From positions 13,674 through 77,673 of the IMG/VR virus record IMGVR_UViG_3300008267_000025: a DNA stretch of 64,000 bases, one strand, 5' to 3'. The DNA comes from a virus. Positions 798 through 62,292 of this stretch are shown here, piece after piece. Within the stretch, counting starts at the first letter, position 1. Each line of letters starts with the position of its first letter. The position numbers and the translations under genes are program-made. The notes beneath the pieces were generated by a model, which worked only from the letters and a program-made list of their open reading frames with translations, was not told where the DNA came from and ran no database searches.

Positions 798-1034
798 GTG
801 AATGAAAATAATGATAAAAGTGAATCTCATGGATATTGGGAAGTTTACCATAATAACGGCAATCTATCTCATAAAGTAAATTATATTAATGGTAAAAAAG
901 ATGGTTATTGGAAAAGTTATTGGTTAAATGGTAATTTGAATTATAAAGGTGAATATATTAATGGTCAAAATAGGGGCTATTGGGAATGGTATTGGGTTGA
1001 TGGTAAATTAGAAGAAAAACAATTTTACTTATGA
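798..1034 (+). CDS. MORN2/YwqK-like repeat protein (long form)
   Basis: GYWE..NGNL..K..YING repeats, ends KQFYL; GTG start. Confidence 0.85.
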   Translation: MNENNDKSESHGYWEVYHNNGNLSHKVNYINGKKDGYWKSYWLNGNLNYKGEYINGQNRGYWEWYWVDGKLEEKQFYL

Positions 1035-1273
1035 ATCAAAGAAATGATAAAGGAGAACGTATTGGTTATTGGGAAGACTATTGGTCTAATGGTAATCTAG
1101 ATTTTAAAGGGAATTACACTCTAAATGGTAAAAAAGATGGTTACTGGGAAAGTTGTTATGTGAACGGTAATTTATATAGTAGAGGGAATTATATTAATGA
1201 TGAAAGAGATGGTCTTTGGGAATGGGGTGATTTTAATGATAATGAAATAATAACTAAAGCGTTTTACTTATGA
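1031..1273 (+). CDS. MORN2/YwqK-like repeat protein
   Basis: Same motifs, ATGA overlap. Confidence 0.88.
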   Translation: MNQRNDKGERIGYWEDYWSNGNLDFKGNYTLNGKKDGYWESCYVNGNLYSRGNYINDERDGLWEWGDFNDNEIITKAFYL

Positions 1274-1506
1274 ATCAACATAATGATAAAGGTCAGAAAC
1301 ATGGCTATTGGGAAAGATATTATCTTGATAGTAAAGTAAAAAGTAAAGGCAATTATATCAATGGTAAAAGTGATGGTCTTTGGGTGTATTATTATAATAA
1401 CGGTAATTTAGGTTATAAAGGAAGTTATGTTAATGGTGAAAGATATGGTTACTGGGAGTGGTGTAAGTTTGATGGTGGATTATATCAAAAAGAATTTGTC
1501 TTATGA
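1270..1506 (+). CDS. MORN2/YwqK-like repeat protein
   Basis: Same motifs, ATGA overlap. Confidence 0.88.
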   Translation: MNQHNDKGQKHGYWERYYLDSKVKSKGNYINGKSDGLWVYYYNNGNLGYKGSYVNGERYGYWEWCKFDGGLYQKEFVL

Positions 1507-1748
1507 ATAAAAGAATCAATAAAGGAGAAAAACATGGATATTGGGAAAGATATTATCCTAATGGTAATTTAAACTTTAAAGGTTATTTCAATAATGGTAA
1601 AACTCATGGTCTTTGGGAAAGTTATTATCAAAATGGTGATTTAATGTATAAAGGTAGTTATATTAATGATGAACGTATTGGATTATGGGAGTGGTATCCA
1701 TTAATTCATAATGAATATAATCGAATAGAAAAAGAATTTTACTTATGA
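1503..1748 (+). CDS. MORN2/YwqK-like repeat protein (81 aa; close paralog of 2073..2318)
   Basis: Same motifs; shared W.P.I.NE.N.IEKEFYL tail. Confidence 0.88.
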   Translation: MNKRINKGEKHGYWERYYPNGNLNFKGYFNNGKTHGLWESYYQNGDLMYKGSYINDERIGLWEWYPLIHNEYNRIEKEFYL

Positions 1749-1909
1749 ATCAACATAACGATAAAGGTCAGAAACACGGTTACTGGGAACATTATTATTT
1801 TGAAGAGGTTATATGGTATAGGGTTAATTATGACAATGGTAATATGGTTGGTTGCTGTGAACTTTTTAATAGTTTTGGTGAATTAACAGCTAAAGCATTT
1901 TTCTTATGA
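1745..1909 (+). CDS. MORN2-like repeat protein, short 54 aa form (not in ORF track)
   Basis: Manual translation MNQHNDKGQKHGYWEHYYFEEVIWYRVNYDNGNMVGCCELFNSFGELTAKAFFL. Confidence 0.85.
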   Translation: MNQHNDKGQKHGYWEHYYFEEVIWYRVNYDNGNMVGCCELFNSFGELTAKAFFL

Positions 1910-2076
1910 ATGAATATAATGATAAACATGAACCCCATGGTTATTGGGAAATATACTGGGGTGATAGTAACGAACATTTAATGTTTAAAGGAATTTTTAT
2001 TAACGGAATTGAAAGTGGGTATTGGGAATGGAATTCAATTGATAGTAAATTAAAACATAAAGCATTTTACTTATGA
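1906..2076 (+). CDS. MORN2-like repeat protein, short 56 aa form (not in ORF track)
   Basis: MNEYNDKHEPHGYWEIYWGDSNEHLMFKGIFINGIESGYWEWNSIDSKLKHKAFYL. Confidence 0.85.
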   Translation: MNEYNDKHEPHGYWEIYWGDSNEHLMFKGIFINGIESGYWEWNSIDSKLKHKAFYL

Positions 2077-2318
2077 ATGGATATAACAGTAAAGGACAAA
2101 GACAGGGTTATTGGGAAAAGCGGTATCCTAATGGTAATTTAGACTATAAAGGTTATTACATTAACGGCAAGCGTCAAGGTGTTTGGGAAAGTTATTATCA
2201 AAATGGAAAGTTGTCTTGGAAAGGTAATTTTAATGATGATTTGTATACAGGATATTTCGAATGGCATCCAATCATTATAAATGAACACAATCAAATAGAA
2301 AAAGAATTTTACTTATGA
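2073..2318 (+). CDS. MORN2/YwqK-like repeat protein
   Basis: Same motifs. Confidence 0.88.
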   Translation: MNGYNSKGQRQGYWEKRYPNGNLDYKGYYINGKRQGVWESYYQNGKLSWKGNFNDDLYTGYFEWHPIIINEHNQIEKEFYL

Positions 2319-2551
2319 ATCAATTAAATAGTAAAGAATACTTATACGGATATCCTGATGAAAATATCTTTAGCACGGAATGGTTTAAAGGGTATTACCT
2401 TAATGGTGAATATTATGGGTATTGGGAGTGGTATTCAACTAACGGTAATGTATGGCTGAAAGGTCATTACCTTAATAATAAAGAAAATGGATATTGGGAA
2501 CATTATATTTATAATGAAGATAAATTAAATCAAAAACTATTTTACTTATAA
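2315..2551 (+). CDS. MORN2/YwqK-like repeat protein (divergent N-terminus, last in array)
   Basis: GYWEWY..NGNV.LKG.Y; ends KLFYL-TAA. Confidence 0.85.
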   Translation: MNQLNSKEYLYGYPDENIFSTEWFKGYYLNGEYYGYWEWYSTNGNVWLKGHYLNNKENGYWEHYIYNEDKLNQKLFYL

Positions 2552-2587
2552 TATTTAATGTTATATTAACTATTTATTAAATAAAAA

Positions 2588-3073
2588 ATGAGTAACATAC
2601 GTGATATAATCAAAAAAGTTTTGAATGAGAATCATCAAGAAAAAATTAATGCTATTTTAGATAAAATCAATTTAGTTGGATTTGAGAATTTATCTGACTA
2701 TGAGAAATCATTATTGGGTAAATTATCTAAAGATGAATATAAATACAATTCAATTGACGAAGAAGTTATTGATTGGTTAGATAAACGTTATGGTAAATTT
2801 ATAGTGGATGAATTTACTGAAAAAAGTTTTGGTAGATTTACTAATAAAGGATTTAATTTTTTAAATGATGACCTTGATTTAATGATGAAACTCGTGGTTC
2901 ATGTTGATGATAGAAGAGATAATATTCTATATGTACATTACAGTATTTTTAGTGAATTAAAAAAAGAATTTAATTTGGATGATGACCAAGAAGAACAAAT
3001 TTTAAAGATGTGGTTAAATAAAACTTACCCAAATTTCAATTTTAATCACGTTAAAATTAGTCAACTATTTTAA
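2588..3073 (+). CDS. Hypothetical protein with DUF6576-like helical motif
   Basis: INAILDKINLVGFENLSDYEKSLL; TATTTAT upstream. Confidence 0.6.
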   Translation: MSNIRDIIKKVLNENHQEKINAILDKINLVGFENLSDYEKSLLGKLSKDEYKYNSIDEEVIDWLDKRYGKFIVDEFTEKSFGRFTNKGFNFLNDDLDLMMKLVVHVDDRRDNILYVHYSIFSELKKEFNLDDDQEEQILKMWLNKTYPNFNFNHVKISQLF

Positions 3074-3625
3074 ATACTTGTGTAATTTCCATCTATCAAC
3101 ATCCGATATTTCTTTTTTAAGTTCTTCGTAATTAACATTTAATTGGTTTGTTAAATCAGGTGAACCGTCATGATTCATCGTATAAAATAGGTTATTGTTT
3201 TTATCGTAAACCATGTTAACTGATTCTAATGTAATGTAAGAAATATAATCCATAGTGTTTATAAAACATACTTTAATACTTGTACCAAAACATTTGTTAA
3301 CCCCAATATGATTCAATAAACTAACAAACTCATTAGAGATTACACCCAAATATATTGAACAACCTTCAGGTAATCCATTTGTTATTCTACATTTTTCAGT
3401 TATTGGTAAAAATTGAGGTATTCTCTTATCAGTATTAACCTCAATAATAAAATTATATATTTCAAAATATGGGTTATCTGTTTTAATAATATCGGTATTA
3501 ACGATTACGTTAGCTTCAAATTTATAATCGAACTTAAAACCTGTCAATTCTTCAATAATCTTATTACCCATTGCATTATATAACGTGGTAATTATTTTAT
3601 TGATATTTTTACTTAACATTATCAT
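3065..3625 (-). CDS. Hypothetical protein
   Basis: 186 aa ORF; TATATTTG on minus strand just upstream. Confidence 0.65.
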   Translation of the reverse strand: MIMLSKNINKIITTLYNAMGNKIIEELTGFKFDYKFEANVIVNTDIIKTDNPYFEIYNFIIEVNTDKRIPQFLPITEKCRITNGLPEGCSIYLGVISNEFVSLLNHIGVNKCFGTSIKVCFINTMDYISYITLESVNMVYDKNNNLFYTMNHDGSPDLTNQLNVNYEELKKEISDVDRWKLHKYLK

Positions 3626-3695
3626 GTAACAAATATATAAATAATTTTTAAAATATTATATTTGTTATATCACAATAAAAATAATATATTTGTTT

Positions 3696-3935
3696 ATGAA
3701 TAATATTGAAGAATATTACCCTGATGAAATAATATTAAAAGCAGATGGGTTCGATGATGCTATAATAGGTATTGATGATATCTCAATGAGATTAATTTAT
3801 TCCGTATCTAAATGTCTTGAAATCTTAAAAAAAGATATGGATGAAGAAGAAGCTATAGAATATTTTGATTTTAATGTGAAATATGCTTATGTTGGTGATA
3901 AAACACCTATTTGGTGTGTTGATAATTTAATATAA
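3696..3935 (+). CDS. Small phage hypothetical protein (DGFDDAIIG family)
   Basis: ADGFDDAIIG...EAIEYFDFN...YVGDKTPIW; ATG 4 nt after TATATTTG. Confidence 0.75.
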   Translation: MNNIEEYYPDEIILKADGFDDAIIGIDDISMRLIYSVSKCLEILKKDMDEEEAIEYFDFNVKYAYVGDKTPIWCVDNLI

Positions 3936-3953
3936 TAATGTATTTATCATATT

Positions 3954-4457
3954 ATGAAAGAAAAACATATCAATGGCTTAGTAAAAATGATTAATTTGTA
4001 TGGTCTTGTTAAGACATCAGAAATGACAGGATTATCAATTTATGAATTAGCAATTAAAACTAATTTTAAATTAGATTTAGATACATACCAAATTATTTTA
4101 AAATCTTTATCTAAAAACAAACTTATCCCATCTACATACAAAGATTTTGAGATTTATATAGATAATTTTAGTGGTATTTATAATTGGGGTGGTCCTATAT
4201 ATGATGGAAATGGTGAAAAATATTATATAGAAGCAATGGCAACACCATTTTGGGATGATTATGGAATACCTGTTGAGATTATTAGTATAGATTCATCAGA
4301 GATTGATGATGATAATTTTTCATACATTAAAGTCGATGATAAGATTGAAACTGTTGATGAATTAATACGGTGGTATAATGAGTTTTATTTACCAAAAACT
4401 TATGAAAAGATAGTTACATTGTTTTCAGATTTATTAGAAACAGGTTATTATAATTAA
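3954..4457 (+). CDS. Hypothetical protein
   Basis: 167 aa ORF after TATTTAT; N-terminus resembles that of 25409..26452. Confidence 0.7.
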   Translation: MKEKHINGLVKMINLYGLVKTSEMTGLSIYELAIKTNFKLDLDTYQIILKSLSKNKLIPSTYKDFEIYIDNFSGIYNWGGPIYDGNGEKYYIEAMATPFWDDYGIPVEIISIDSSEIDDDNFSYIKVDDKIETVDELIRWYNEFYLPKTYEKIVTLFSDLLETGYYN

Positions 4458-4458
4458 T

Positions 4459-4803
4459 ATGTGTAAAATAATAATTGCTGGTAGTAGGACATTTAATGAT
4501 TATAACTTATTGATAAAAACACTTAAAGAATTAAATTTAAATATTACAGAAATTGTTAGTGGAACGGCAAAAGGTGCTGATTCATTGGGTGAAAAATTCG
4601 CCACCGAAAATAATATACCAATTAAAAAATTCCCCCCAAATTGGTCTAAATATCATAAATCCGCAGGTGTTATCAGAAACCAAGAAATGATTGATTATGG
4701 GGATGTTTTAATAGCGTTTTGGGATAGAAATAGTAAAGGTACTCAGGATTCTATTAATAAAGCTCAAAAATCAGGTAAAAAAGTGTTCGTAATTGAATTT
4801 TAA
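4459..4803 (+). CDS. SLOG/YspA-like (DUF2493) nucleotide-binding protein
   Basis: IIIAGSRTF, SGTAKGADSLGE, AGVIRNQEM, AFWD..SKGT. Confidence 0.85.
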   Translation: MCKIIIAGSRTFNDYNLLIKTLKELNLNITEIVSGTAKGADSLGEKFATENNIPIKKFPPNWSKYHKSAGVIRNQEMIDYGDVLIAFWDRNSKGTQDSINKAQKSGKKVFVIEF

Positions 4804-4857
4804 TTTTTTTAATCTCAATTTAATTACTTATCTTTGTTAATACTAAAACATAGTATT

Positions 4858-5175
4858 ATGGCAAAAAAAATAACCCAAACTTCACCTGTTAAAGTATTAC
4901 ATGAAACTCAATTAATTAATCGTGATTCGGCAAGAGTCTGTAAAATAGTTGAATTTAATGGTAAAAAATTCAAAATAATTTACGATTTAAGAAATGGTAT
5001 TAGTGACCTTTCTTGTTACGTTATGGATAATTATGGTGCGTTTCAATTCGCCTTAAACAAATACGATATAGGTCATAATTTTACGTGTTCTTATGTTAAT
5101 AATGAAGAAACTAAAAAATCAGATATTAAAGTAGCTTTAGACTTATGTGAAAAAGTAATTATTAAAATATATTAA
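4858..5175 (+). CDS. Hypothetical protein
   Basis: ORF downstream of TATCTTTG promoter element. Confidence 0.65.
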   Translation: MAKKITQTSPVKVLHETQLINRDSARVCKIVEFNGKKFKIIYDLRNGISDLSCYVMDNYGAFQFALNKYDIGHNFTCSYVNNEETKKSDIKVALDLCEKVIIKIY

Positions 5176-5186
5176 TAATTTTACTT

Positions 5187-5351
5187 ATGAATAAATTTAA
5201 TGATAAAGGTAAAAAGCATGGATATTGGGAAGGATATTATTCACATAGTAAGTTAATGTATAAAGGAAATTATAATAATGGAGTTCAAACAGGTTGTTGG
5301 GAATGGTATTACTTAGATGGTAATTTTTTAACAAAAGAATTTTTTTTATAA
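5187..5351 (+). CDS. Orphan MORN2-like repeat protein, 54 aa (not in ORF track)
   Basis: MNKFNDKGKKHGYWEGYYSHSKLMYKGNYNNGVQTGCWEWYYLDGNFLTKEFFL. Confidence 0.85.
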   Translation: MNKFNDKGKKHGYWEGYYSHSKLMYKGNYNNGVQTGCWEWYYLDGNFLTKEFFL

Positions 5352-5374
5352 TATATTTATATAAAAAAGAAATT

Positions 5375-5941
5375 ATGAGTAAAGAAATGAGAGAACAAAT
5401 TGATAAATTTAATAAATTACTTTTATCGGATTTTGATAAACCGACTTTAGATAGTTTATCTTCTATTTTAAATACAAATGTGAACATTATTGATTTTAAT
5501 GATTTTGGTAAACTGAGTAGTAAAGATGGTAAATTTGAACTAAACGGTGGTAAAAAACAAAAAATAAAAGATTATTATGTTGATATTCAAAATATTGATA
5601 TTGTGAAAAAAAATAACAGTATTGTTGATGTAACACTTTTAGTTATGACCATTTCAAATGAGTCAGAAACTATTGATATTGATTATGTTAAATCAACAGG
5701 TAAATTTAATGTGGTGTCTGTATCACCAGTTGATGTTGATTATAAAGATAAAGGTTTTACAAAAATATCTTTAGACAAATACACCAACGATAACAATATG
5801 GCTGGTTATACGATAAACAATAAGTTTATTAGTGATAGAAAAGAATTGGCTAAACATTTTATAAGTATTAAGAAATTACAACCAAATGATTTCAAAAAAT
5901 TAATACAACATTTAGGCGTATCTTATAAAAATTTAAAATAA
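5375..5941 (+). CDS. Hypothetical protein
   Basis: 188 aa ORF after TATTTAT. Confidence 0.7.
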   Translation: MSKEMREQIDKFNKLLLSDFDKPTLDSLSSILNTNVNIIDFNDFGKLSSKDGKFELNGGKKQKIKDYYVDIQNIDIVKKNNSIVDVTLLVMTISNESETIDIDYVKSTGKFNVVSVSPVDVDYKDKGFTKISLDKYTNDNNMAGYTINNKFISDRKELAKHFISIKKLQPNDFKKLIQHLGVSYKNLK

Positions 5942-5961
5942 TAGTAAAAAATAGTGTATAT

Positions 5962-5990
5962 AAACCCTGACTAACCATCAGGGTTTTTTT
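5962..5990 (+). terminator. Intrinsic terminator upstream of array 2
   Basis: AACCCTGA-ctaacca-TCAGGGTT + T-tract. Confidence 0.85.
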
Positions 5991-6010
5991 GTTTATATCA
6001 AAATAAACAG

Positions 6011-6018
6011 TATATTTG
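6011..6018 (+). promoter_or_regulatory. Bacteroidota-type -7 promoter element driving MORN array 2 (probably leaderless mRNA)
   Basis: TATATTTG, ATG at 6023. Confidence 0.7.
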
Positions 6019-6022
6019 TAAT

Positions 6023-6259
6023 ATGAATCAATTAAATGATAAAGGTGAACGTCACGGGTATTGGGAAGAATACTGGTCAAATAATGTTATATCATCTAAA
6101 GGTGAATATATTAACAACAATAGGGTTGGTCTTTGGATATTGTACAGAACTGACGGCATCTTATCTTGTAAAGGAAATATACTTAATGGTGAACAAACAG
6201 GTTGTTGGGAATGGTATGATAAAAAAGGTAAATTAACACATAAAGCATTTTACTTATGA
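6023..6259 (+). CDS. MORN2/YwqK-like repeat protein
   Basis: Motifs as array 1. Confidence 0.88.
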   Translation: MNQLNDKGERHGYWEEYWSNNVISSKGEYINNNRVGLWILYRTDGILSCKGNILNGEQTGCWEWYDKKGKLTHKAFYL

Positions 6260-6420
6260 ATGAATTTAATGATAAAGGAAACGCTCATGGTTATTGGGAA
6301 ACATATTGGAATAATGATAAGTCACACTGGGAAGGTAATTTTAATAATGGTATAGAATGTGGTTATTGGACGTGGTATAAACCTGATGGTGAAATATTTC
6401 AAAAAGAATTTTACTTATGA
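6256..6420 (+). CDS. MORN2-like protein, 54 aa (not in ORF track)
   Basis: MNEFNDKGNAHGYWETYWNNDKSHWEGNFNNGIECGYWTWYKPDGEIFQKEFYL. Confidence 0.85.
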   Translation: MNEFNDKGNAHGYWETYWNNDKSHWEGNFNNGIECGYWTWYKPDGEIFQKEFYL

Positions 6421-6653
6421 ATCAATATAATGATAAAGGACAAAGACATGGTTATTGGGAATTTTATTATCTTAATGATACTATAGCATATAAAGGAAGT
6501 TTCAATAATGGGAAAGAAGATGGGAATTGTGAGGGTTATTATAATAATAAAAATTTACAGTTTAAAGGAAATTTCATTAATGGCGTAAAGAATGGTTATT
6601 GTGTAAGTTATAATTTAAATGGTAGTTTAAGAAATAAAGAATTTTATTTATGA
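6417..6653 (+). CDS. MORN2/YwqK-like repeat protein
   Basis: Motifs as above. Confidence 0.88.
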   Translation: MNQYNDKGQRHGYWEFYYLNDTIAYKGSFNNGKEDGNCEGYYNNKNLQFKGNFINGVKNGYCVSYNLNGSLRNKEFYL

Positions 6654-6886
6654 ATCAATATAATGATAAAGGACAATTTCATGGTTATTGGGAACATCAT
6701 TATTTGTGTGGTGAATTGTTAGGTAAAGGAACTTATATAAACGGTAAACGTCACGGATATTGGGAAGACTGTTATCGGAACGGAAAATTACAATGGGTTG
6801 GTAACTACAATAATGGAGAACGTATTGGTTATTGGGGTTGGTATAATAAGGATGGTAAATTAGAAGAAAAAGAATTTTACTTATGA
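6650..6886 (+). CDS. MORN2/YwqK-like repeat protein
   Basis: Motifs as above. Confidence 0.88.
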   Translation: MNQYNDKGQFHGYWEHHYLCGELLGKGTYINGKRHGYWEDCYRNGKLQWVGNYNNGERIGYWGWYNKDGKLEEKEFYL

Positions 6887-7053
6887 ATAAATATAATTAC
6901 AACGATAAAGGTCAGAGACACGGTTACTGGGAATTATATTGGCTCAATGGTAATCCATGGTGTAGAGGAAGTTATATTAATAACGCTGCAACTGGTTATT
7001 GGGAATGGTATGATGATAGTGGAGAATTTTTTGAAAAACAATTTTACTTATGA
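6883..7053 (+). CDS. MORN2-like protein, 56 aa (not in ORF track)
   Basis: MNKYNYNDKGQRHGYWELYWLNGNPWCRGSYINNAATGYWEWYDDSGEFFEKQFYL. Confidence 0.85.
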   Translation: MNKYNYNDKGQRHGYWELYWLNGNPWCRGSYINNAATGYWEWYDDSGEFFEKQFYL

Positions 7054-7286
7054 ATCAATATAACGATAAAGGTGAACGTCATGGGTATTGGGAAGGATAT
7101 CGAGGTAATGGTAATTTATGGTCTAAAGGAAACTATGTCAATGATAAACGTAACGGATGTTGGGAATTTTACTGGGGAAATGGTAAATTACAATGGAAAG
7201 GTAATTATAATAATGGTATAGAACGTGGTATTTGGGTGTGGTATGACAGTGATGGTAAATTAAAAGAGAAAGTTTTTCACTTATGA
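7050..7286 (+). CDS. MORN2/YwqK-like repeat protein
   Basis: Motifs as above. Confidence 0.88.
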   Translation: MNQYNDKGERHGYWEGYRGNGNLWSKGNYVNDKRNGCWEFYWGNGKLQWKGNYNNGIERGIWVWYDSDGKLKEKVFHL

Positions 7287-7519
7287 ATAAATTAAACGAT
7301 AAAGGTTATAAACATGGATATTGGGAAATATATGACAGTTATAACAATCTCTATGCTAAAGGAGAATACATTAACGGATTTAAGAATGGTTATTGGGAGG
7401 AATATTATTCTAATGGTAACTTAGTATGGAAAGGTTATTTTAAAGATAATAAGGATGTTGACTTTTGGCAATTCTATAGTATGTCAGGTAATTTAGCATT
7501 AAAAACTTTTAGATTATGA
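7283..7519 (+). CDS. MORN2/YwqK-like repeat protein
   Basis: Motifs as above. Confidence 0.88.
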   Translation: MNKLNDKGYKHGYWEIYDSYNNLYAKGEYINGFKNGYWEEYYSNGNLVWKGYFKDNKDVDFWQFYSMSGNLALKTFRL

Positions 7520-7752
7520 ATGAAAGAGATGATAAAGGTAAACGTCACGGATATTGGGAAAATTATTTTTCTAATGGTAATATATCTTGGAAAGGTAATT
7601 TCATTAATGGTGAACCTGATGGTTATTGGGAGTACTATTATTTTAATGGTAATATATCGTATAAAGGAAATTATAATAATGGAGAAAGTAACTGTTACTG
7701 TGAATATTATAGCCCTGACGGTATAATAAAAGAAAAAGGATTTCACTTATGA
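7516..7752 (+). CDS. MORN2/YwqK-like repeat protein
   Basis: Motifs as above. Confidence 0.88.
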   Translation: MNERDDKGKRHGYWENYFSNGNISWKGNFINGEPDGYWEYYYFNGNISYKGNYNNGESNCYCEYYSPDGIIKEKGFHL

Positions 7753-7985
7753 ATCAATATAACGAAAATAGGTTAAAAGAAGGTTATTGGGAAGCTTATT
7801 ATTCTAATGGTAACCTGGGGTATAAAGGGAATTATATTAATGGTAAGTCAGTTGGTTATTGGGAAGAATATTATGTTAATGGTAATTTATCTAAAAAAGG
7901 TAATTATATTAATGATGAATATATAGGTAATTGGGAATGGTATGACAGTAATGGTAATTTATACGAAAAAGAATTTTACTTATGA
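7749..7985 (+). CDS. MORN2/YwqK-like repeat protein (close paralog of 8143..8379)
   Basis: Shares LKEGYWEAYYSNGNL with 8143 at the DNA level. Confidence 0.88.
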   Translation: MNQYNENRLKEGYWEAYYSNGNLGYKGNYINGKSVGYWEEYYVNGNLSKKGNYINDEYIGNWEWYDSNGNLYEKEFYL

Positions 7986-8146
7986 ATCAATTTAATGAAA
8001 GAGGTGAACACCACGGATATTGGGAAGAAACTTATTTTAACGATGTTATATGGTATAAAGGAAATTATGTCAACAATCAAATGGTTGGTCATTGGGAAGT
8101 TTTTAATGTTTTTGGTCAAATAACAGATAAAGCGTTTTTTTTATGA
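7982..8146 (+). CDS. MORN2-like protein, 54 aa (not in ORF track; closest to 1745..1909)
   Basis: MNQFNERGEHHGYWEETYFNDVIWYKGNYVNNQMVGHWEVFNVFGQITDKAFFL. Confidence 0.85.
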   Translation: MNQFNERGEHHGYWEETYFNDVIWYKGNYVNNQMVGHWEVFNVFGQITDKAFFL

Positions 8147-8379
8147 ATCAATTTAATGATAAAGGGTTAAAAGAAGGTTATTGGGAAGCTTATTATTCTA
8201 ATGGTAACCTGTGGTATAAAGGAAATTTCAGTAATGATAAGTCAGTTGGTTATTGTGAAGAATATTATCTGAATGGTAGTTTATATTGTAAAGGTGAGTT
8301 TAACTACGATGAATATTTAGGTTATTGGGAATGGTACTATATAGATGGTAATTTAGTTATTAAAGAATTTTACTTATGA
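8143..8379 (+). CDS. MORN2/YwqK-like repeat protein
   Basis: Motifs as above. Confidence 0.88.
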   Translation: MNQFNDKGLKEGYWEAYYSNGNLWYKGNFSNDKSVGYCEEYYLNGSLYCKGEFNYDEYLGYWEWYYIDGNLVIKEFYL

Positions 8380-8392
8380 ATATAATGATAAT

Positions 8393-8418
8393 AACCCTGA
8401 ATAACATCAGGGTTTTTT
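8393..8418 (+). terminator. Intrinsic terminator closing array 2
   Basis: AACCCTGA-ataaca-TCAGGGTT + T-tract; near-copy of 5962..5990. Confidence 0.85.
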
Positions 8419-12773: not shown

Positions 12774-13655
12774 ATGAGAAAATTAATTATAACAGAAAAT
12801 GATAAACAAAACATTCTTAGGATGTATGGGTTGATTAATGAACAATCATCCCCGTGTCAATTTGACAATTATCAAAATGGGGATGGTGTTAATAAACCAA
12901 AAATAACAATTAATAAGTCATCTGTCGGTGTTGAGTTGATATATGAAGGACCTGAGACAGGATTTTGCATCCAACATTCAAAAGGGTCGACAGGTGATAG
13001 TATCCATCAATTGGCCGGTGTGACACGAGTGGTTGTTTCTAGATACCTTAAAGAATTGTATGGTAATGGAATTTATGTTTATCCGGACTTAAAAAGCATA
13101 ACCATGGTTAAAAAAGATATGTTTTTTAACATTAATATACCTTTTGTTAAAACAACCGAAGATAAAGCAATTACCAATTTTAATGAGAGAGGTGGTTGGG
13201 GACATAATGGTATTAGTTCACTTAACGATTTTAAGAGTACTATATCAGATAAGAATAAATATGGTTTGGTTAGTGTTGTAACCAAAGTAGCGTCAGGCGG
13301 TAATTCTCCCGATATAACGGAACATTGGGTTTCATTTAGAGATTTAGTTGCGTATCCTATTAAGGGTGGTAATACATTGAATAATTTGGATAAGAAAGAA
13401 CCTATTAAAGTAAATACCCCTGATTTAACAACAAAACTAAGTAATTTAGATAAGAAAGAGACTATTAATAAATCAACGGGTGATAAAATAGTTACTAATT
13501 ATGATAGGGCGTATGATTATAAATTAACTTCAGATAATAAAGTTATGTTTAAGGGTAAGAAATGGACTAAGTATGGTGAAAAGTATCCTGAATGGACTGA
13601 CCCGTTAAGTGAAAAAGGTGAAACCGCTATTAGAACTAAAGTTTTTAAACAATAA
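12774..13655 (+). CDS. Putative virion-associated protein with (I/L)xE leader
   Basis: MRKLIITENDKQNILRMYGLINEQ; C-terminal module shared with 22165 protein. Confidence 0.7.
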   Translation: MRKLIITENDKQNILRMYGLINEQSSPCQFDNYQNGDGVNKPKITINKSSVGVELIYEGPETGFCIQHSKGSTGDSIHQLAGVTRVVVSRYLKELYGNGIYVYPDLKSITMVKKDMFFNINIPFVKTTEDKAITNFNERGGWGHNGISSLNDFKSTISDKNKYGLVSVVTKVASGGNSPDITEHWVSFRDLVAYPIKGGNTLNNLDKKEPIKVNTPDLTTKLSNLDKKETINKSTGDKIVTNYDRAYDYKLTSDNKVMFKGKKWTKYGEKYPEWTDPLSEKGETAIRTKVFKQ

Positions 13656-16033: not shown

Positions 16034-16084
16034 TCTTTAAACCCTCACTTTGAATAGTTGAGGGTTTTTTATTATATTTGTATT

Positions 16085-16612
16085 ATGGGTAATTTAAATT
16101 TTAAACGTAAGGGAATTGTGTATGAGCCACTTTGTTCATGGAGAACCGATTCTATAACTGAAGTGGGTATTTATCAAGGTGATAGAGGTTCGAATCCTGA
16201 GTTAGATTTTATTGTAAAATATAAAGAAGAGGGTAAGAGATTACGAACCCCATCGCATACGCATTGGATTGTGGATTTATTAATTAAATCTGAATTAAAT
16301 AAGGAAGTATTATCATATTACATACGTGATTTGATTAGTATGTATGATGAAATGAAACCGTTTGTTACATTGGAAGAGAGGTCTAACTATATATTAGTTA
16401 ATCCTTCAATTATGGATATAAAATATTCAATGTTTAATGAAAGGGGTTGTTATAGTATTAGTACTTTAACCTCGTTTATTGAATTATTTTCTAAGTGTGA
16501 GAAACAGGGTGAAGATGCCTTTATGTTTAGAGGGTTATTAGTATTAATTGAAGAGTATTGTAAAGGTTTAAAAGATTATTATCAGGTTGTTGGGTATTCC
16601 AAAAGAGTATAA
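16085..16612 (+). CDS. Hypothetical protein
   Basis: ATG after TATATTTG; RTPSHTHWIVDL motif. Confidence 0.7.
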   Translation: MGNLNFKRKGIVYEPLCSWRTDSITEVGIYQGDRGSNPELDFIVKYKEEGKRLRTPSHTHWIVDLLIKSELNKEVLSYYIRDLISMYDEMKPFVTLEERSNYILVNPSIMDIKYSMFNERGCYSISTLTSFIELFSKCEKQGEDAFMFRGLLVLIEEYCKGLKDYYQVVGYSKRV

Positions 16613-39055: not shown

Positions 39056-39088
39056 GTTTTATCAAAAATAATTTCATATATTTGTCAT

Positions 39089-39643
39089 ATGAAATTATTA
39101 TTAAGTTTATTAGTCATTTTAACTACAGTTGGTTTTTCACAAAAACCTAGTGATACTATAGATTATAGTAAAATTAATATTAAATTATTAACTGAACTCA
39201 TTACTAAAAAATGTGACGTAAAACGAGTTGAACTCGGTAATCTTCCTTTAGTTTATAATAAAATCGCCTATGAATCTGCGAAATATCAATCTGATTGTTT
39301 ATCTGAAAAAAATATTGGGATAAGTCATGAAAATAAGATACAACATAATAATGTTTTGTTACAAACACCTACAGACAGGGTTGATTTTTTTAATAAAAAA
39401 AATAAAACTGATTTTAGTTTTACAGGTGAAATAATAGGTCTTTTTTATTTAAGTGGTGAAACTTATAATTCTTTATCGGATTTAATTATTGACGATTTTA
39501 TGAATTCTGATAGACATAGATTTATAATGACAAAAATTAAAACATCCAATAATATCAAACGTTATGGTGCTTTTGCTGTATCTTATAATGTAATCGATAA
39601 ATCCGTATATGTAACAGGTGTTTTCACATCAAAATACGAATAA
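39089..39643 (+). CDS. Secreted CAP (SCP)-domain protein
   Basis: Signal peptide; R...GN.PL, A.YQS, SH, GEI, FMNS.RH. Confidence 0.75.
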   Translation: MKLLLSLLVILTTVGFSQKPSDTIDYSKINIKLLTELITKKCDVKRVELGNLPLVYNKIAYESAKYQSDCLSEKNIGISHENKIQHNNVLLQTPTDRVDFFNKKNKTDFSFTGEIIGLFYLSGETYNSLSDLIIDDFMNSDRHRFIMTKIKTSNNIKRYGAFAVSYNVIDKSVYVTGVFTSKYE

Positions 39644-40964: not shown

Positions 40965-41012
40965 GTAAAAAAAACGTTTTGTATAATTAATGATATTTCG
41001 TATATTTGTTAT

Positions 41013-41573
41013 ATGAAAACAAATATATTTATTACTTTTTTTATCGTATTAACTACAATTGGTTTTTCACAAAAACCTACAGATACTATAGATTATAGTA
41101 AAATTAATATTAAATTATTAACGGAACTCATTACTAAAAAATGTGATACCAAACGAGTAGAATTAGGTAATGAACCTTTAAAATATGATAAAGTTGCGTA
41201 TGATGCTGCTAAGTACCAATCTGATTATTTATCTGTTAAAAATTTTAGAATAAGTCATGAAAATTCTATACCACATAATAATATTTTATTGAGAACCCCC
41301 ACCGATAGAGTTGATTTTTTTAATAATAAAAATAAGAGTAATTCTGATTTTGATGGAGAAATAATTTGTCAAATAAAAAATATAGAACTAACGTATGATT
41401 CGTTATCAACGATAGTTATTCAAAGTTTTATGAATTCAGAACACCATCGATTTATCATGACACAAATAACACCTTTTGAGAATATTAAATGTTATGGTGC
41501 GTTTGGTGTTAATTATAATTATATAACCAAAACATTATATGTTACAGGTGTTTTTACATCTAAATATGAATAA
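41013..41573 (+). CDS. Secreted CAP-domain protein (recent duplicate of 39089)
   Basis: Long nucleotide identity with 39089 gene; both end GVFTSKYE. Confidence 0.78.
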   Translation: MKTNIFITFFIVLTTIGFSQKPTDTIDYSKINIKLLTELITKKCDTKRVELGNEPLKYDKVAYDAAKYQSDYLSVKNFRISHENSIPHNNILLRTPTDRVDFFNNKNKSNSDFDGEIICQIKNIELTYDSLSTIVIQSFMNSEHHRFIMTQITPFENIKCYGAFGVNYNYITKTLYVTGVFTSKYE

Positions 41574-55703: not shown

Positions 55704-55780
55704 ATAAATCTATTATAAATATTCTTTACTTATCTAAAAATTATTTTGGTAGGTACGTTATTTTTTTGTATATTTGTACT

Positions 55781-56179
55781 ATGATATACTATCGTACAAA
55801 AATAAAAGAATTATCAAATAAAGACTTAATTAAACTCAATAAAATTTGTGTTAAATTTTGTAAGCGAAACTTAGGGGTTACTAAAAATCTAAAAATCAAA
55901 TTAATTTATAATAAAGAGAGCTATGAATATTACGGTTATCTTGACTGTGCCACTGATACAATTTTTATATTTTTAAATGTTTGTAAATCTGTAGGTGTCT
56001 TAACAAGAACATTTATACATGAATGGACTCATACATTACAACCATGTGAAAAAAAATACGACAAATTACTTAAAAAGTATGGTTATGATAACCACCCCTA
56101 TGAAATAGAATCAAGAGATAATGAAAAGAAATTTAATAGATTTTTACTTAAAAAAATAAGAAAAAAATTCGAAAAATAA
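55781..56179 (+). CDS. HEXXH metallopeptidase-like protein
   Basis: TFIHEWTHTLQ...GYDNHPYEIE. Confidence 0.7.
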   Translation: MIYYRTKIKELSNKDLIKLNKICVKFCKRNLGVTKNLKIKLIYNKESYEYYGYLDCATDTIFIFLNVCKSVGVLTRTFIHEWTHTLQPCEKKYDKLLKKYGYDNHPYEIESRDNEKKFNRFLLKKIRKKFEK

Positions 56180-56195
56180 TTATTATATTTGTATT

Positions 56196-56429
56196 ATGAG
56201 AAAAACGATAGAAGTTAAACAGTTAATAGATTATTCTAATCAACAATTATCAAGAACTGATAGTTATGCTACTAAGGAATTTAAACAAGGTATTTGTGTT
56301 ATTATCGAAGGTGTCTTACATATGACCGATAACTATTCAGGTTTTATGTTTATCAATACTAAAGATTCGGATATAGATACTTTGGGTTATTATTCAAGAA
56401 AATATTTTACAAATAATAAATTACTATGA
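56196..56429 (+). CDS. Small phage hypothetical protein
   Basis: EGVLHMTDNYSGF. Confidence 0.6.
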   Translation: MRKTIEVKQLIDYSNQQLSRTDSYATKEFKQGICVIIEGVLHMTDNYSGFMFINTKDSDIDTLGYYSRKYFTNNKLL

Positions 56430-60259: not shown

Positions 60260-60287
60260 AAAAAAGGGGTTTAAAACCCCTTTTTTT
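60257..60287. terminator. Bidirectional terminator
   Basis: A-tract GGGGTT-taa-AACCCC T-tract between convergent genes. Confidence 0.75.
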
Positions 60288-62292
60288 ATTTTGTAATCTC
60301 TGTTATTTTGACAACTTCTTCTTCAATGAATAATTTGTATTCGGTGTTTTCTTTAATTTCACCTTTTAGAACTTCTTCTGAAATAAAGTCTTCGATTTTA
60401 TCTTGGATAGCACGTTTTAGTGGTCTAGCACCATATAATTCATCAAAACCAACATCTGAAATAAATTCAATTATAGTATCATCAAATTTAAAGTTATATT
60501 TTAATGAGGTTAAACGTGCTGTTAATTTTTCAAGTTCAACAACAACTATTTTTTTAACATCATCTTTTTCTAAACTGTTAAACATAATTACTTCATCAAT
60601 ACGATTTAAAAACTCAGGTGCGAAGAATTTTTGTAACTCCTTTTTAAGGATATCACGTTTTTGTTCTTCTTCAACATACGATTTAGAACTACCTCCGAAA
60701 CCAATACCTGTTCCAAATTCTTGTAGTTTTCTAACACCAATATTCGTTGTCATGATGATGATACAGTTCTTAAAATTAATTTTTCTACCTAAACTATCAG
60801 TAATATACCCATCATCTAAAACTTGTAATAAACTTGAGAAGATATCTTTGTTAGCTTTTTCTACCTCATCAAATAAAATAACCGAATAAGGTTTATTTTT
60901 AACTTGTTCTGTTAATTGACCACCCTCGTCATGCCCTACATATCCCGGAGGTGCTCCGATTAATCTTGAAATGGTATGTTTTTCTTGATACTCTGACATA
61001 TCAATTCTAATTAAAGCATCTTCACTACCAAAAATTTGTTTTGCTAATTGTTTAGCCAAATACGTTTTACCAACACCGGTTGAACCTAAGAATATGAATG
61101 AACCTATTGGTTTGTTAGGGTCTTTAATACCTAATCTATTTCTTCTAATTGATTTTGATATTTTAGATACCGCACCTGATTGTCCAATTACTTTAGTATT
61201 TAAATTATTTTCCATTTCGGACAATAATTTAGTTTCGTCAGAATTTAATTTTGAAACAGGTATTTTTGTCATATTAGAAACTACATCATAAACTAAATCT
61301 ACAGATATTTCTTTTCTATTAACACTTAACTCTTCTTCAAATTTTTTCTTTTCAATTTCTAATTTGTTTAGAATTCGTTTTTCTTTATCTCTAAGATTGG
61401 CGGCTTCTTCATAATCTTGTCGTTTAACAACATCAAGTTTTTCTTTTTTAATTTCTTGAGCTTCATTTTTAAGGTCTTCAATTGATTTAGGTACTTTAAC
61501 TTCAACTTGACTACGTGCACCAACTTCATCAAGAATATCAAATGCCTTATCAGGAAATTCTCTATCTGTAATATATCTTTCAGCTAATTCAACACAAGTA
61601 TTCAACACTTCATCAGAATAGATTACTTTATGATAATTTTCATATCTATCTTTAGCATTTTTCAAAATTTGTAATGTTTCTTCTTTAGTTGCCGAATCAA
61701 CAATTACTTTTTGGAATCTTCTTTCAAGAGCACCATCTTTTTCGAAATTTTTACGATATTCATCAATAGTTGTTGCACCAACACATTGTATTTCACCCCT
61801 AGCTAATGCCGGTTTAAATATGTTAGAAGCATCCATAGTTCCTGATGTATTACCAGCACCTACTATTGTATGGATTTCATCGATAAATACAATAATATTA
61901 GGGTTAGACTGAAGTTCTTCGATGATAACTTTCATCCTTTCTTCAAATTGACCTCTGTATTTTGTACCGGCAACGATAGATGTCATATCCAATGATACTA
62001 TTCTTTTATCCATTAAATTCCTTGGACATTCTCCGTTTAAAATTTTAATAGCTAATCCCTCAACTATTGCTGTTTTACCACAACCTGGTTCACCAATAAT
62101 TATTGGATTATTTTTCTTCCTTCTTGATAAAATTTGTGCGATTCTAGATATCTCACGTTCTCTACCAATAACGGGGTCAATCTTACCTTGTTCAGCAAGT
62201 TTTATTAAATCCTTACTAAAATTATCTAGTACAGGTGTTGAGGATTCTGAACCACTTTTGTTATTGTTATCATTATTTGCAAATTCAATCAT
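60286..62292 (-). CDS. clpC: ClpC-type AAA+ unfoldase lacking the N-terminal domain
   Basis: Two Walker A motifs ([16 protein letters not shown]), UVR middle domain ([11 protein letters not shown]), IGF loop (GIGFG), GARPL. Confidence 0.88.

Follow-up and report, generated by a model that had tools for sequence, protein, structure and literature searches.

Chained arrays of small, diversified MORN-repeat genes in an uncultured large phage

Introduction

Homogeneous polyimmunity loci of bacteria are composed of tandem small immunity genes that share one orientation, are separated by tiny spacers, are polycistronic and vary between strains (Zhang et al. 2012, PMC3482391), and the acquired interbacterial defence clusters of Bacteroidales provide a further precedent for arrays of immunity genes (bioRxiv 10.1101/471110). 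Here we describe a family of small genes encoding MORN-repeat proteins (MORN mini-genes) on the 77.7-kilobase (kb) IMG/VR virus record IMGVR_UViG_3300008267_000025. The whole stretch that was analysed (the window; 64,000 nucleotides (nt), G+C content about 27%) corresponds to positions 13674-77673 of this record. It contains 20 intact MORN mini-genes whose products are 54-81 amino acids (aa) long, organized in two arrays plus one orphan. It should be noted that CheckV estimated the completeness of the record at 26%, which implies a full genome of about 300 kb.

The phage arrays share several characteristics with the polyimmunity loci: they contain at least four tandem paralogues (runs of 8 and 11 genes in this case) that have one orientation and short or negative spacers and are not interrupted by toxin genes, and the number and type of their members vary between close strains. 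On the other hand, they are carried by a phage instead of a bacterial chromosome or an integrative element, they reach 25-57 copies per contig, their members have 2-4 repeats, and neither a recombinase nor a toxin gene is located nearby. We conclude that the arrays are probably a further form of tandem binding/immunity-type repeat-protein families.

Within the MORN family, support for an immunity function comes from YwqK only, while the arrays described here are phage-borne. The toxin domain of YwqJ, an LXG deaminase of Bacillus subtilis, co-purifies with YwqK, which is reported to be the cognate immunity protein of this toxin (bioRxiv 10.64898/2026.09.29.755374). The phage proteins differ from YwqK in being much shorter, in having no cognate toxin gene adjacent and in giving no match to any YwqK-type model of NCBIfam. 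Annotation pipelines label these MORN_2 genes 'YwqK family antitoxin' (COG2849). These labels are automatic, and the link between YwqK and MORN_2 consists of such labels and of a MORN_2 match at an unlocated position in the B. subtilis control genome.

Three other groups of MORN proteins are relevant. Firstly, MORN2 (PF07661) genes are expanded in actively invading Fusobacterium (Manson McGuire et al. 2014, PMC4222103); as in the phage, there is local duplication, a variable number of repeats and strain-level differences in content, but 87% of the Fusobacterium proteins have signal peptides, their presumed role being that of surface adhesins; they are also longer, and dispersed in clusters that contain adhesin genes. 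Secondly, amoebal giant viruses (Orpheovirus, Pithovirus, Marseillevirus and Klosneuvirinae) possess MORN-repeat multigene families (PMC5753266), and thus also combine a large viral genome with many paralogous MORN-type proteins of the same fold (template-modelling (TM) scores of 0.7-0.9 in BFVD). These, however, are eukaryotic viruses whose MORN proteins usually have 150-450 aa, share 20-30% identity with those of the phage and are not encoded by genes chained through stop/start overlaps. Thirdly, the eukaryotic MORN proteins (the N-domain of SET7/9, MORN1, RSPH1 and junctophilin; PF02493) share the single-layer antiparallel sheet of hairpin repeats, SET7/9, MORN1 and RSPH1 being the best matches in the PDB; they differ in having a 23-aa repeat, against 24 aa in the phage, and in forming part of large multi-domain or structural proteins. 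The nearest remark in the literature concerns a 37-fold enrichment of MORN repeats in marine viral data from long reads (PMC9238414), and full-text searches returned no paper on chained arrays of MORN mini-genes in phages.

Results

The preliminary description of this DNA had reported 20 such genes, distributed over two arrays of 8 and 11 genes plus an orphan, with the sequence TTATGA at all 17 internal junctions. The listing of open reading frames (ORFs) together with inspection of the junctions bore out this layout, and the 4-nt stop/start overlap within TTATGA is indeed present at 17 of the 17 junctions. The number of 20 copies is correct for the window, but the whole contig contains 25 copies, every one an intact ORF. 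The other five lie upstream of the window, two at contig positions 9903-10228 and three at 12899-13601; these five include a four-repeat copy of 102 aa. Counted over the whole contig, ATGA overlaps occur at 20 of the 20 internal junctions.

All MORN mini-genes in the window are located on the plus strand. Array 1 (798-2551) starts with m06 (798-1034; 78 aa, three repeats), which has a GTG start codon and matches the Pfam model MORN_2 at E 2.1e-9 (36.9 bits). It is followed by m07 (1031-1273; 80 aa), m08 (1270-1506; 78 aa), m09 (1503-1748; 81 aa), m10 (1745-1909; 54 aa, two repeats), m11 (1906-2076; 56 aa) and m12 (2073-2318; 81 aa), and the array is closed by the most divergent copy, m13 (2315-2551; 78 aa), which ends with a TAA stop codon. 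The orphan, m14 (5187-5351; 54 aa), matches MORN_2 at E 5.3e-5. Array 2 (6023-8379) is opened by m15 (6023-6259; 78 aa; MORN_2 E 1.4e-8) and continues with m16 (6256-6420; 54 aa), m17 (6417-6653; 78 aa), m18 (6650-6886; 78 aa), m19 (6883-7053; 56 aa), m20 (7050-7286; 78 aa), m21 (7283-7519; 78 aa), m22 (7516-7752; 78 aa; MORN_2 E 2.2e-7), m23 (7749-7985; 78 aa) and m24 (7982-8146; 54 aa), the last gene being m25 (8143-8379; 78 aa; MORN_2 E 5.7e-7). The genes for which no E value is given here were assigned by ORF and junction (m07 by its ATGA overlap), in the case of m07, m10, m13 and m19 also by Pfam and in that of m20 and m21 also by comparison with relatives.

The assignment to MORN_2 proposed in the preliminary description was confirmed by hidden Markov model (HMM) searches, with matches down to E 2e-9, and all 25 copies align as one family, the members of which match one another with E values of 2e-54 to 1e-5, far beyond chance. 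The MORN_2 model (PF07661) describes a 22-residue repeat and has a gathering score of 29.6 bits. It matched 9 of the 10 copies tested, three of them above the gathering score (36.9, 34.4 and 30.7 bits), while one remained just below it (29.5 bits) and five had E values of 0.002-0.02; at the level of single repeats, there are 32 MORN_2 matches on the contig. The tested copy that gave no Pfam match by itself is the 54-aa product of m24, which aligns with the 25-copy family. The eukaryotic MORN model PF02493 (23 residues, cut-off 22.5 bits) gave a best score of 13.7 bits (E 0.06), in one copy only.

In the alignment of the 25 copies, M1, N2, G12, K74, F76 and L78 are invariant, N5, Y13, W14 and E15 are at least 90% conserved, and a Trp and a Lys are invariant in each repeat. 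The proposed start and end motifs hold as a scaffold, with the exceptions that some copies end with KEFVL or KTFRL and that the first gene of array 1 starts with GTG. The composition of the family is unusual (N 13.6%, Y 13.0%, G 12.1%, W 6.1% and F 4%); thus, the suggested enrichment in aromatic residues is present (Y+W+F 23.5%), whereas the suggested enrichment in Cys is not (1.2%). The genes encode real MORN_2 mini-proteins that combine a fixed scaffold with highly variable positions. Each repeat has three to four highly variable positions on a fixed Gly/Tyr/Trp/Asn-Gly frame, and the positions that are hypervariable in this phage as well as in independent lineages are 16, 19 and 24 with their equivalents in each repeat, as well as the turn before each GYW.

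An AlphaFold2 model of the product of m18 (6650-6886), based on the alignment of the paralogues, had a predicted local distance difference test (pLDDT) value of 94.9 and showed six strands forming three hairpins in a single-layer sheet, in agreement with the open beta-hairpin repeat sheet expected of MORN_2 proteins. The best Foldseek match in the PDB was the N-domain of SET7/9, followed by MORN1 and the radial-spoke protein RSPH1, and a profile search also matched SET7/9 (E 2e-6). The best match in BFVD was an 84-aa 'MORN variant [uncultured Caudovirales phage]' (57% identity, TM 0.96), with many giant-virus MORN proteins among the further matches (TM 0.7-0.9, 20-30% identity). The MORN mini-proteins are therefore predicted to adopt the open antiparallel MORN-type beta-sheet fold. 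Judging from the alternation of side chains along the modelled strands, positions 16 and 24 would lie next to each other on adjacent strands, on the same face as the invariant Trp14 and Lys26. A comparison of buried with exposed positions, which had been suggested as a test, carries no weight here because nearly all side chains are exposed in a single-layer sheet. The N-termini are hydrophilic and no signal peptide was seen in the translations; furthermore, ORF and Pfam analyses showed no catalytic or lysis domain attached to the MORN mini-proteins of this phage.

Among the paralogues, the mean proportion of non-synonymous differences (pN, 0.32) is lower than that of synonymous differences (pS, 0.51). 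Based on the intact ORFs, pN < pS, the MORN_2 matches and the confident fold, the MORN mini-genes are real and under selection.

The possibility that the arrays are a decayed single long gene or a repeat element acting at the DNA level was considered separately and is ruled out by the presence of a start and a stop codon in each unit, by pN < pS and by the confident fold.

Alternative-frame ORFs of 42-68 aa are present inside the MORN genes on the plus strand (6036-6236, 7072-7221, 7520-7726 and 7995-8123), and similar ones exist in relatives. Rather than genes, these ORFs seem to be a side effect of the repetitive codon composition.

Array 2 had been described as a single transcript running from a host-type promoter to a terminator, and the sequence signals around it make it look like one operon of that kind. 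It is preceded by a terminator-like hairpin (5962-5986) and a promoter-like region (5987-6018) consisting of TTTG, about 19 nt and TATATTTG (6011-6018), from which 4 nt lead to the ATG; a second terminator-like hairpin (8393-8414) closes the array, and no plus-strand terminator-like site is present within it. Equivalent cassettes precede array 2 (5960-6022) and the upstream array (contig positions 12838-12898). They share the hairpin (AAACCCTGA...TCAGGGTTT), a T run containing TTTG, TATATTTG and the ATG, and the control region thus appears to have been duplicated along with the arrays. Upstream of array 1, a terminator-like hairpin with a 9-bp stem and a T run (747-770) ends the preceding conserved 250-aa gene.

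The motif TAnnTTTG is the -7 box of Bacteroidota promoters, in which the boxes are located at -33 and -7. Followed by four nucleotides and ATG, it has 14 occurrences in the window, where 2.3 would be expected, and this number was not attained in any of 100 shuffles. Examples besides that of array 2 (6011-6025) are located at 3623-3637 (minus strand), 16073-16087, 39077-39091, 41001-41015, 55769-55783 and 56184-56198. Because the spacing between box and ATG is fixed at 4 nt, the transcript start would fall at or near the A of the ATG. We infer from these sequence features that leaderless mRNAs are probably used across this phage and that its host probably belongs to the Bacteroidota.

The orphan gene is preceded by a remnant of an array junction (…AATTTTACTT before the ATG; 5176-5186), which matches the 3' end sequence at the internal junctions, and no MORN gene precedes this remnant. 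Since about 10 nt of an array junction are thus retained before its ATG, the orphan is a former internal member of an array.

Scans for related loci used an alignment of eight sequences as the query against viral and metagenome collections, and the 188 confirmed stretches yielded 13 (viral) and 75 (metagenome) loci. In these 88 loci, an HMM based on the 25 copies identified 709 ORFs, as many as 40 genes being packed into 15.5 kb. The ORF lengths are quantised (about 54-61, 78-83, 102-107, 126-131 and 150-155 aa), and fused pairs of units are absent from all 709 ORFs; according to the junction sequences, one inserted base in the stop codon would fuse two neighbouring units. Of 479 adjacent junctions in 84 related loci, 318 (66%) are ATGA overlaps, the remaining third being other overlaps or 4-59-nt spacers, and within each array all genes share one strand. 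The retention of the ATGA junction across relatives fits translational coupling, as far as can be judged from sequence.

One related IMG/VR contig of 115 kb contains 79 profile matches, with at least 44 chained genes in 26 kb. The sizes of its gene products (59, 83, 107, 131, 155 and 202 aa) increase in steps of one 24-aa repeat, and stops are rare (5 of the 79 matches). Relatives encode proteins with up to eight repeats, and a metagenome contig of 289.7 kb with similar arrays has 57 genes, the 19.9 kb of coding sequence of which correspond to about 7% of the contig. Thus, the MORN array is a trait of a whole group of uncultured, mostly lake-derived large phages. Arrays break short-read assemblies, and many related matches are located on contigs 1-5 kb long; viral catalogues therefore likely underestimate the size of the family.

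Several searches bear on the distribution outside this group. A tblastn search of 50,697 GenBank phage records gave no match, although the low-complexity filter of BLAST may hide weak ones, and PHROGs contains no family for the MORN mini-proteins. The clusters of 54-, 83- and 113-aa MORN-variant proteins in the ESM Atlas are labelled 100% viral. The scan of genome collections gave distant matches only (29-42% identity), to single long proteins in metagenome-assembled genomes (MAGs), most of them of Bacteroidota; most of these long cellular proteins have hydrophobic N-termini that, judged by eye, resemble export signals. Three of 401 genomes sampled from the phylum of the Cytophagaceae match had matches at E <= 1e-14, all in ORFs of 341-1086 aa, and chained MORN mini-genes were seen in none of the cellular genomes searched. 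A profile search of 1.84 billion representatives returned 44,066 matches, a list that is uninformative on the mini-proteins because it is dominated by long multi-repeat cellular proteins. Within the collections searched, the expanded MORN mini-gene family has so far been found only in phage-type sequence.

A contig assigned to a giant-virus MAG (IMGVR_UViG_GVMAG-M-3300007516-50_000001; L034) contains 20 chained phage-type MORN mini-genes of 56-69 aa, and may be a phage contig that was mis-binned into a giant-virus genome.

The arrays change rapidly. The 250-aa flank gene located between two MORN arrays (3-743 of the window; contig positions 13664-14416) is present on three short contigs with 96-98% aa identity, a synonymous divergence (dS) of 0.31-0.45 and a ratio of non-synonymous to synonymous divergence (dN/dS) of 0.02-0.05. 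The arrays that follow this near-identical gene differ in gene order, length classes, content and copy number. The preliminary description had named identical, fixed arrays in relatives as an observation that would speak against a diversified repertoire, and this is not what the relatives show. The best-matching mini-genes of related phages are 68-85% identical, with a dN of 0.08-0.26 at similar dS (dN/dS 0.17-0.85), and protein change is about ten times faster in the mini-genes than in the flank gene.

The differences between copies are sharply clustered. m20 (7050-7286) and its counterpart in a related locus (L040:2020-2256) are identical over the first 147 nt, whereas the last 87 nt contain 28 differences (p = 4e-14), so m20 is mosaic relative to it. 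Similarly, two paralogues 2 kb apart on the contig, m08 and the copy at contig position 12899, share 98 of their first 99 nt, after which 30 of 135 differ (p = 3e-7). This clustering indicates that segments have been exchanged between copies, with breakpoints near repeat borders. In a tree of 120 three-repeat proteins (FastTree, 62-82 columns), which is rough, the copies group by phage lineage, with 10 (full-length) or 17 (core columns) label changes against 57-63 after shuffling, and the copies of this phage interleave with those of close relatives. Together, these data show that whole gene units, including the stop/start junction, are duplicated in tandem, and that recombination between copies alters the number of repeats (in 24-aa steps) and the number and order of genes, and generates mosaic genes.

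Discussion

The presence of dozens of diverged copies of one small scaffold raises the question of what the MORN mini-proteins do. The reading towards which we lean is that they constitute a strain-variable set of small intracellular binders, each for a different host or competitor protein. Each array would be expressed as one polycistronic transcript, which in the case of array 2 would extend from the host-type TAnnTTTG box, as a leaderless mRNA, to the intrinsic terminator. Successive genes would be translated through termination-reinitiation at AUGA, and the mini-proteins would hold or block different host or competitor proteins, following the logic of the bacterial homogeneous polyimmunity loci. 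A specific anti-defence or immunity role is a more tentative proposition, possible but on balance rather doubtful. In that case, the arrays would be a phage-borne polyimmunity set in which each member neutralises a different host defence effector or interbacterial toxin, so that the infected cell would be protected, or disarmed, during a long infection by a protein-based counter-defence built on one minimal scaffold.

Several observations weigh against these proposals. First, Pfam and PHROGs scans of the neighbouring genes showed no toxin or defence gene beside the arrays. Second, no YwqK-type model of NCBIfam was matched, the only match in that collection being to the LIC20035 adhesin model, with 15-53 bits against a cut-off of 250 bits. 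Third, the analogy with immunity proteins has YwqK as its single basis, because cellular MORN_2 proteins are mostly exported and have no assigned function (PMC4222103). Fourth, array 1 has no clear TAnnTTTG box and its first gene has a GTG start codon. Finally, the positive selection that had been anticipated at the variable positions was not found. A crude Nei-Gojobori test, in which independent lineages were used to define the site classes, gave an omega of 0.55-0.77 at the hypervariable sites and about 0.3 elsewhere, with no pair reaching 1; the diversity can therefore be accounted for by recombination and relaxed constraint, without an arms race.

If the mini-proteins are binders, they would be among the largest single-scaffold protein repertoires observed in any phage, made from units of 54-81 residues, and the immunity version, if true, would be a counter-defence or immunity strategy of uncultured large phages, probably of Bacteroidota, that is not shown by cultured model phages. 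In addition, the family is of interest to binder engineering as a minimal beta-sheet scaffold of natural origin whose variable positions are mapped, and it provides a concrete case of tandem gene arrays that diversify through repeat-level recombination.

A different kind of binding would be that of a small ligand or an envelope polymer. The units would then resemble choline- or carbohydrate-binding repeats, or act as sponges for nucleotide signals, and the many copies would give capacity or range. The unusual aromatic content (Y 13%, W 6%, F 4%) and the invariant Trp and Lys in each repeat would suit such a function; moreover, MORN repeats have been noted in phage endolysins (PMC9238414), and export is typical of cellular MORN_2 proteins (PMC4222103). 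The proteins of this phage, however, have neither a signal peptide nor an attached catalytic or lysis domain, they show no similarity to known sponge families in the Pfam, PHROGs and NCBIfam collections searched, and a common ligand would not need dozens of diverged surfaces and strain-level turnover. We therefore consider this explanation unlikely.

The conservation within each phage lineage of the N- and C-terminal strands might be an indication that the mini-proteins are building blocks, which join edge-to-edge or end-to-end into a MORN sheet, fibre or lattice, either inside the cell or on the virion, which would amount to supplying long MORN proteins in separate parts. In line with this, the gene boundary is located inside a repeat unit, and in the alignment the end of one unit, taken together with the beginning of its successor, looks like an internal repeat carrying a short insert. 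Furthermore, relatives have covalent versions with up to eight repeats, ATGA coupling would favour matched amounts, and eukaryotic MORN proteins are structural in radial spokes and MORN1 assemblies, according to the titles of PDB entries. On the other hand, if whole units are duplicated and recombination takes place at the junction, conserved ends are expected as well. The variation in gene number, repeat number and order between near-identical phages is hard to square with a defined assembly, and the variable positions evolve fast, whereas a lattice would constrain surfaces. In addition, the arrays are located among small genes and tRNA genes, and the large ORFs of the window have only weak tail or lysis matches. 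Taken together, a building-block function seems improbable.

The omega values, which are near neutral at the variable sites (0.55-0.77) and never exceed 1, could also be taken to mean that the expansion is largely non-adaptive. Repeats that are easily duplicated would have accumulated in very large phage genomes, their proteins being harmless and weakly selected, and the extra DNA would be tolerated or be useful as capsid filler. The copy number differs widely between lineages, and in amoebal giant viruses the number of repeat-protein genes rises with genome size (PMC5753266), as would be expected in that case. We nevertheless regard a non-adaptive origin as improbable as well. All 25 copies are intact and stops occur in only 5 of 79 matches of a related phage, dN/dS at the scaffold sites is clearly below 1 (0.3), and hundreds of copies, none of them fused, have retained the junction, start and stop. 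The arrays also persist over many diverged lineages and take up about 7% of a 290-kb contig.

Finally, the synthesis of one long poly-MORN protein via programmed -1 frameshifting at each TTATGA, for which the uniform junction sequence and the location of each next gene in the -1 frame could be cited, is highly improbable, as no canonical slippery heptamer was found at the junction, one third of the junctions in relatives are 4-59-nt spacers or other overlaps, each unit retains its own ATG and a conserved N-terminus, and natural fusions are absent among the 709 ORFs though one inserted base would suffice.

Additional observations

The arrays are surrounded by small genes without assigned function and by tRNA genes, and for the large ORFs in the rest of the window only weak similarities to tail or lysis proteins were obtained. 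The only matches of the genes between the arrays were to SLOG/YAcAr, DUF6576 and a PHROG family without known function. The first of these genes (4459-4803) encodes a 114-aa SLOG-family protein that matches Pfam YAcAr (E 1.8e-15) and phrog_289 ('GTP-binding domain').

The 250-aa flank protein was modelled by AlphaFold2 with a pLDDT of 89.6, yet it has no Pfam, PHROG or PDB fold match. It is present in more than 400 metagenome clusters, including marine sets, and its paralogues adjoin MORN arrays in a related phage (L009:4190-4960 and 6676-7371).

A subfamily in related phages (L009:2701-4105 and L012) shares a C-terminal extension of about 40 aa (…YDMGKRVDYNPDEP…LSDIANKLG…) that is not matched by Pfam and might represent an additional module of non-MORN type.

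The two-gene array upstream of the window (contig positions 9903-10228) is flanked on both sides (L010:9549-10518) by paralogous genes whose products start with MTGTLHKTE (36% identity, E 3e-9), and the downstream one also overlaps the stop codon of a MORN gene by ATGA.

At 60286-62292, on the minus strand, the window encodes a 668-aa homologue of an ATP-dependent protease (phrog_4871, E 5e-238); among GenBank phages, it is matched best (57-59% identity) by two entries of 635-642 kb from uncultured phages.

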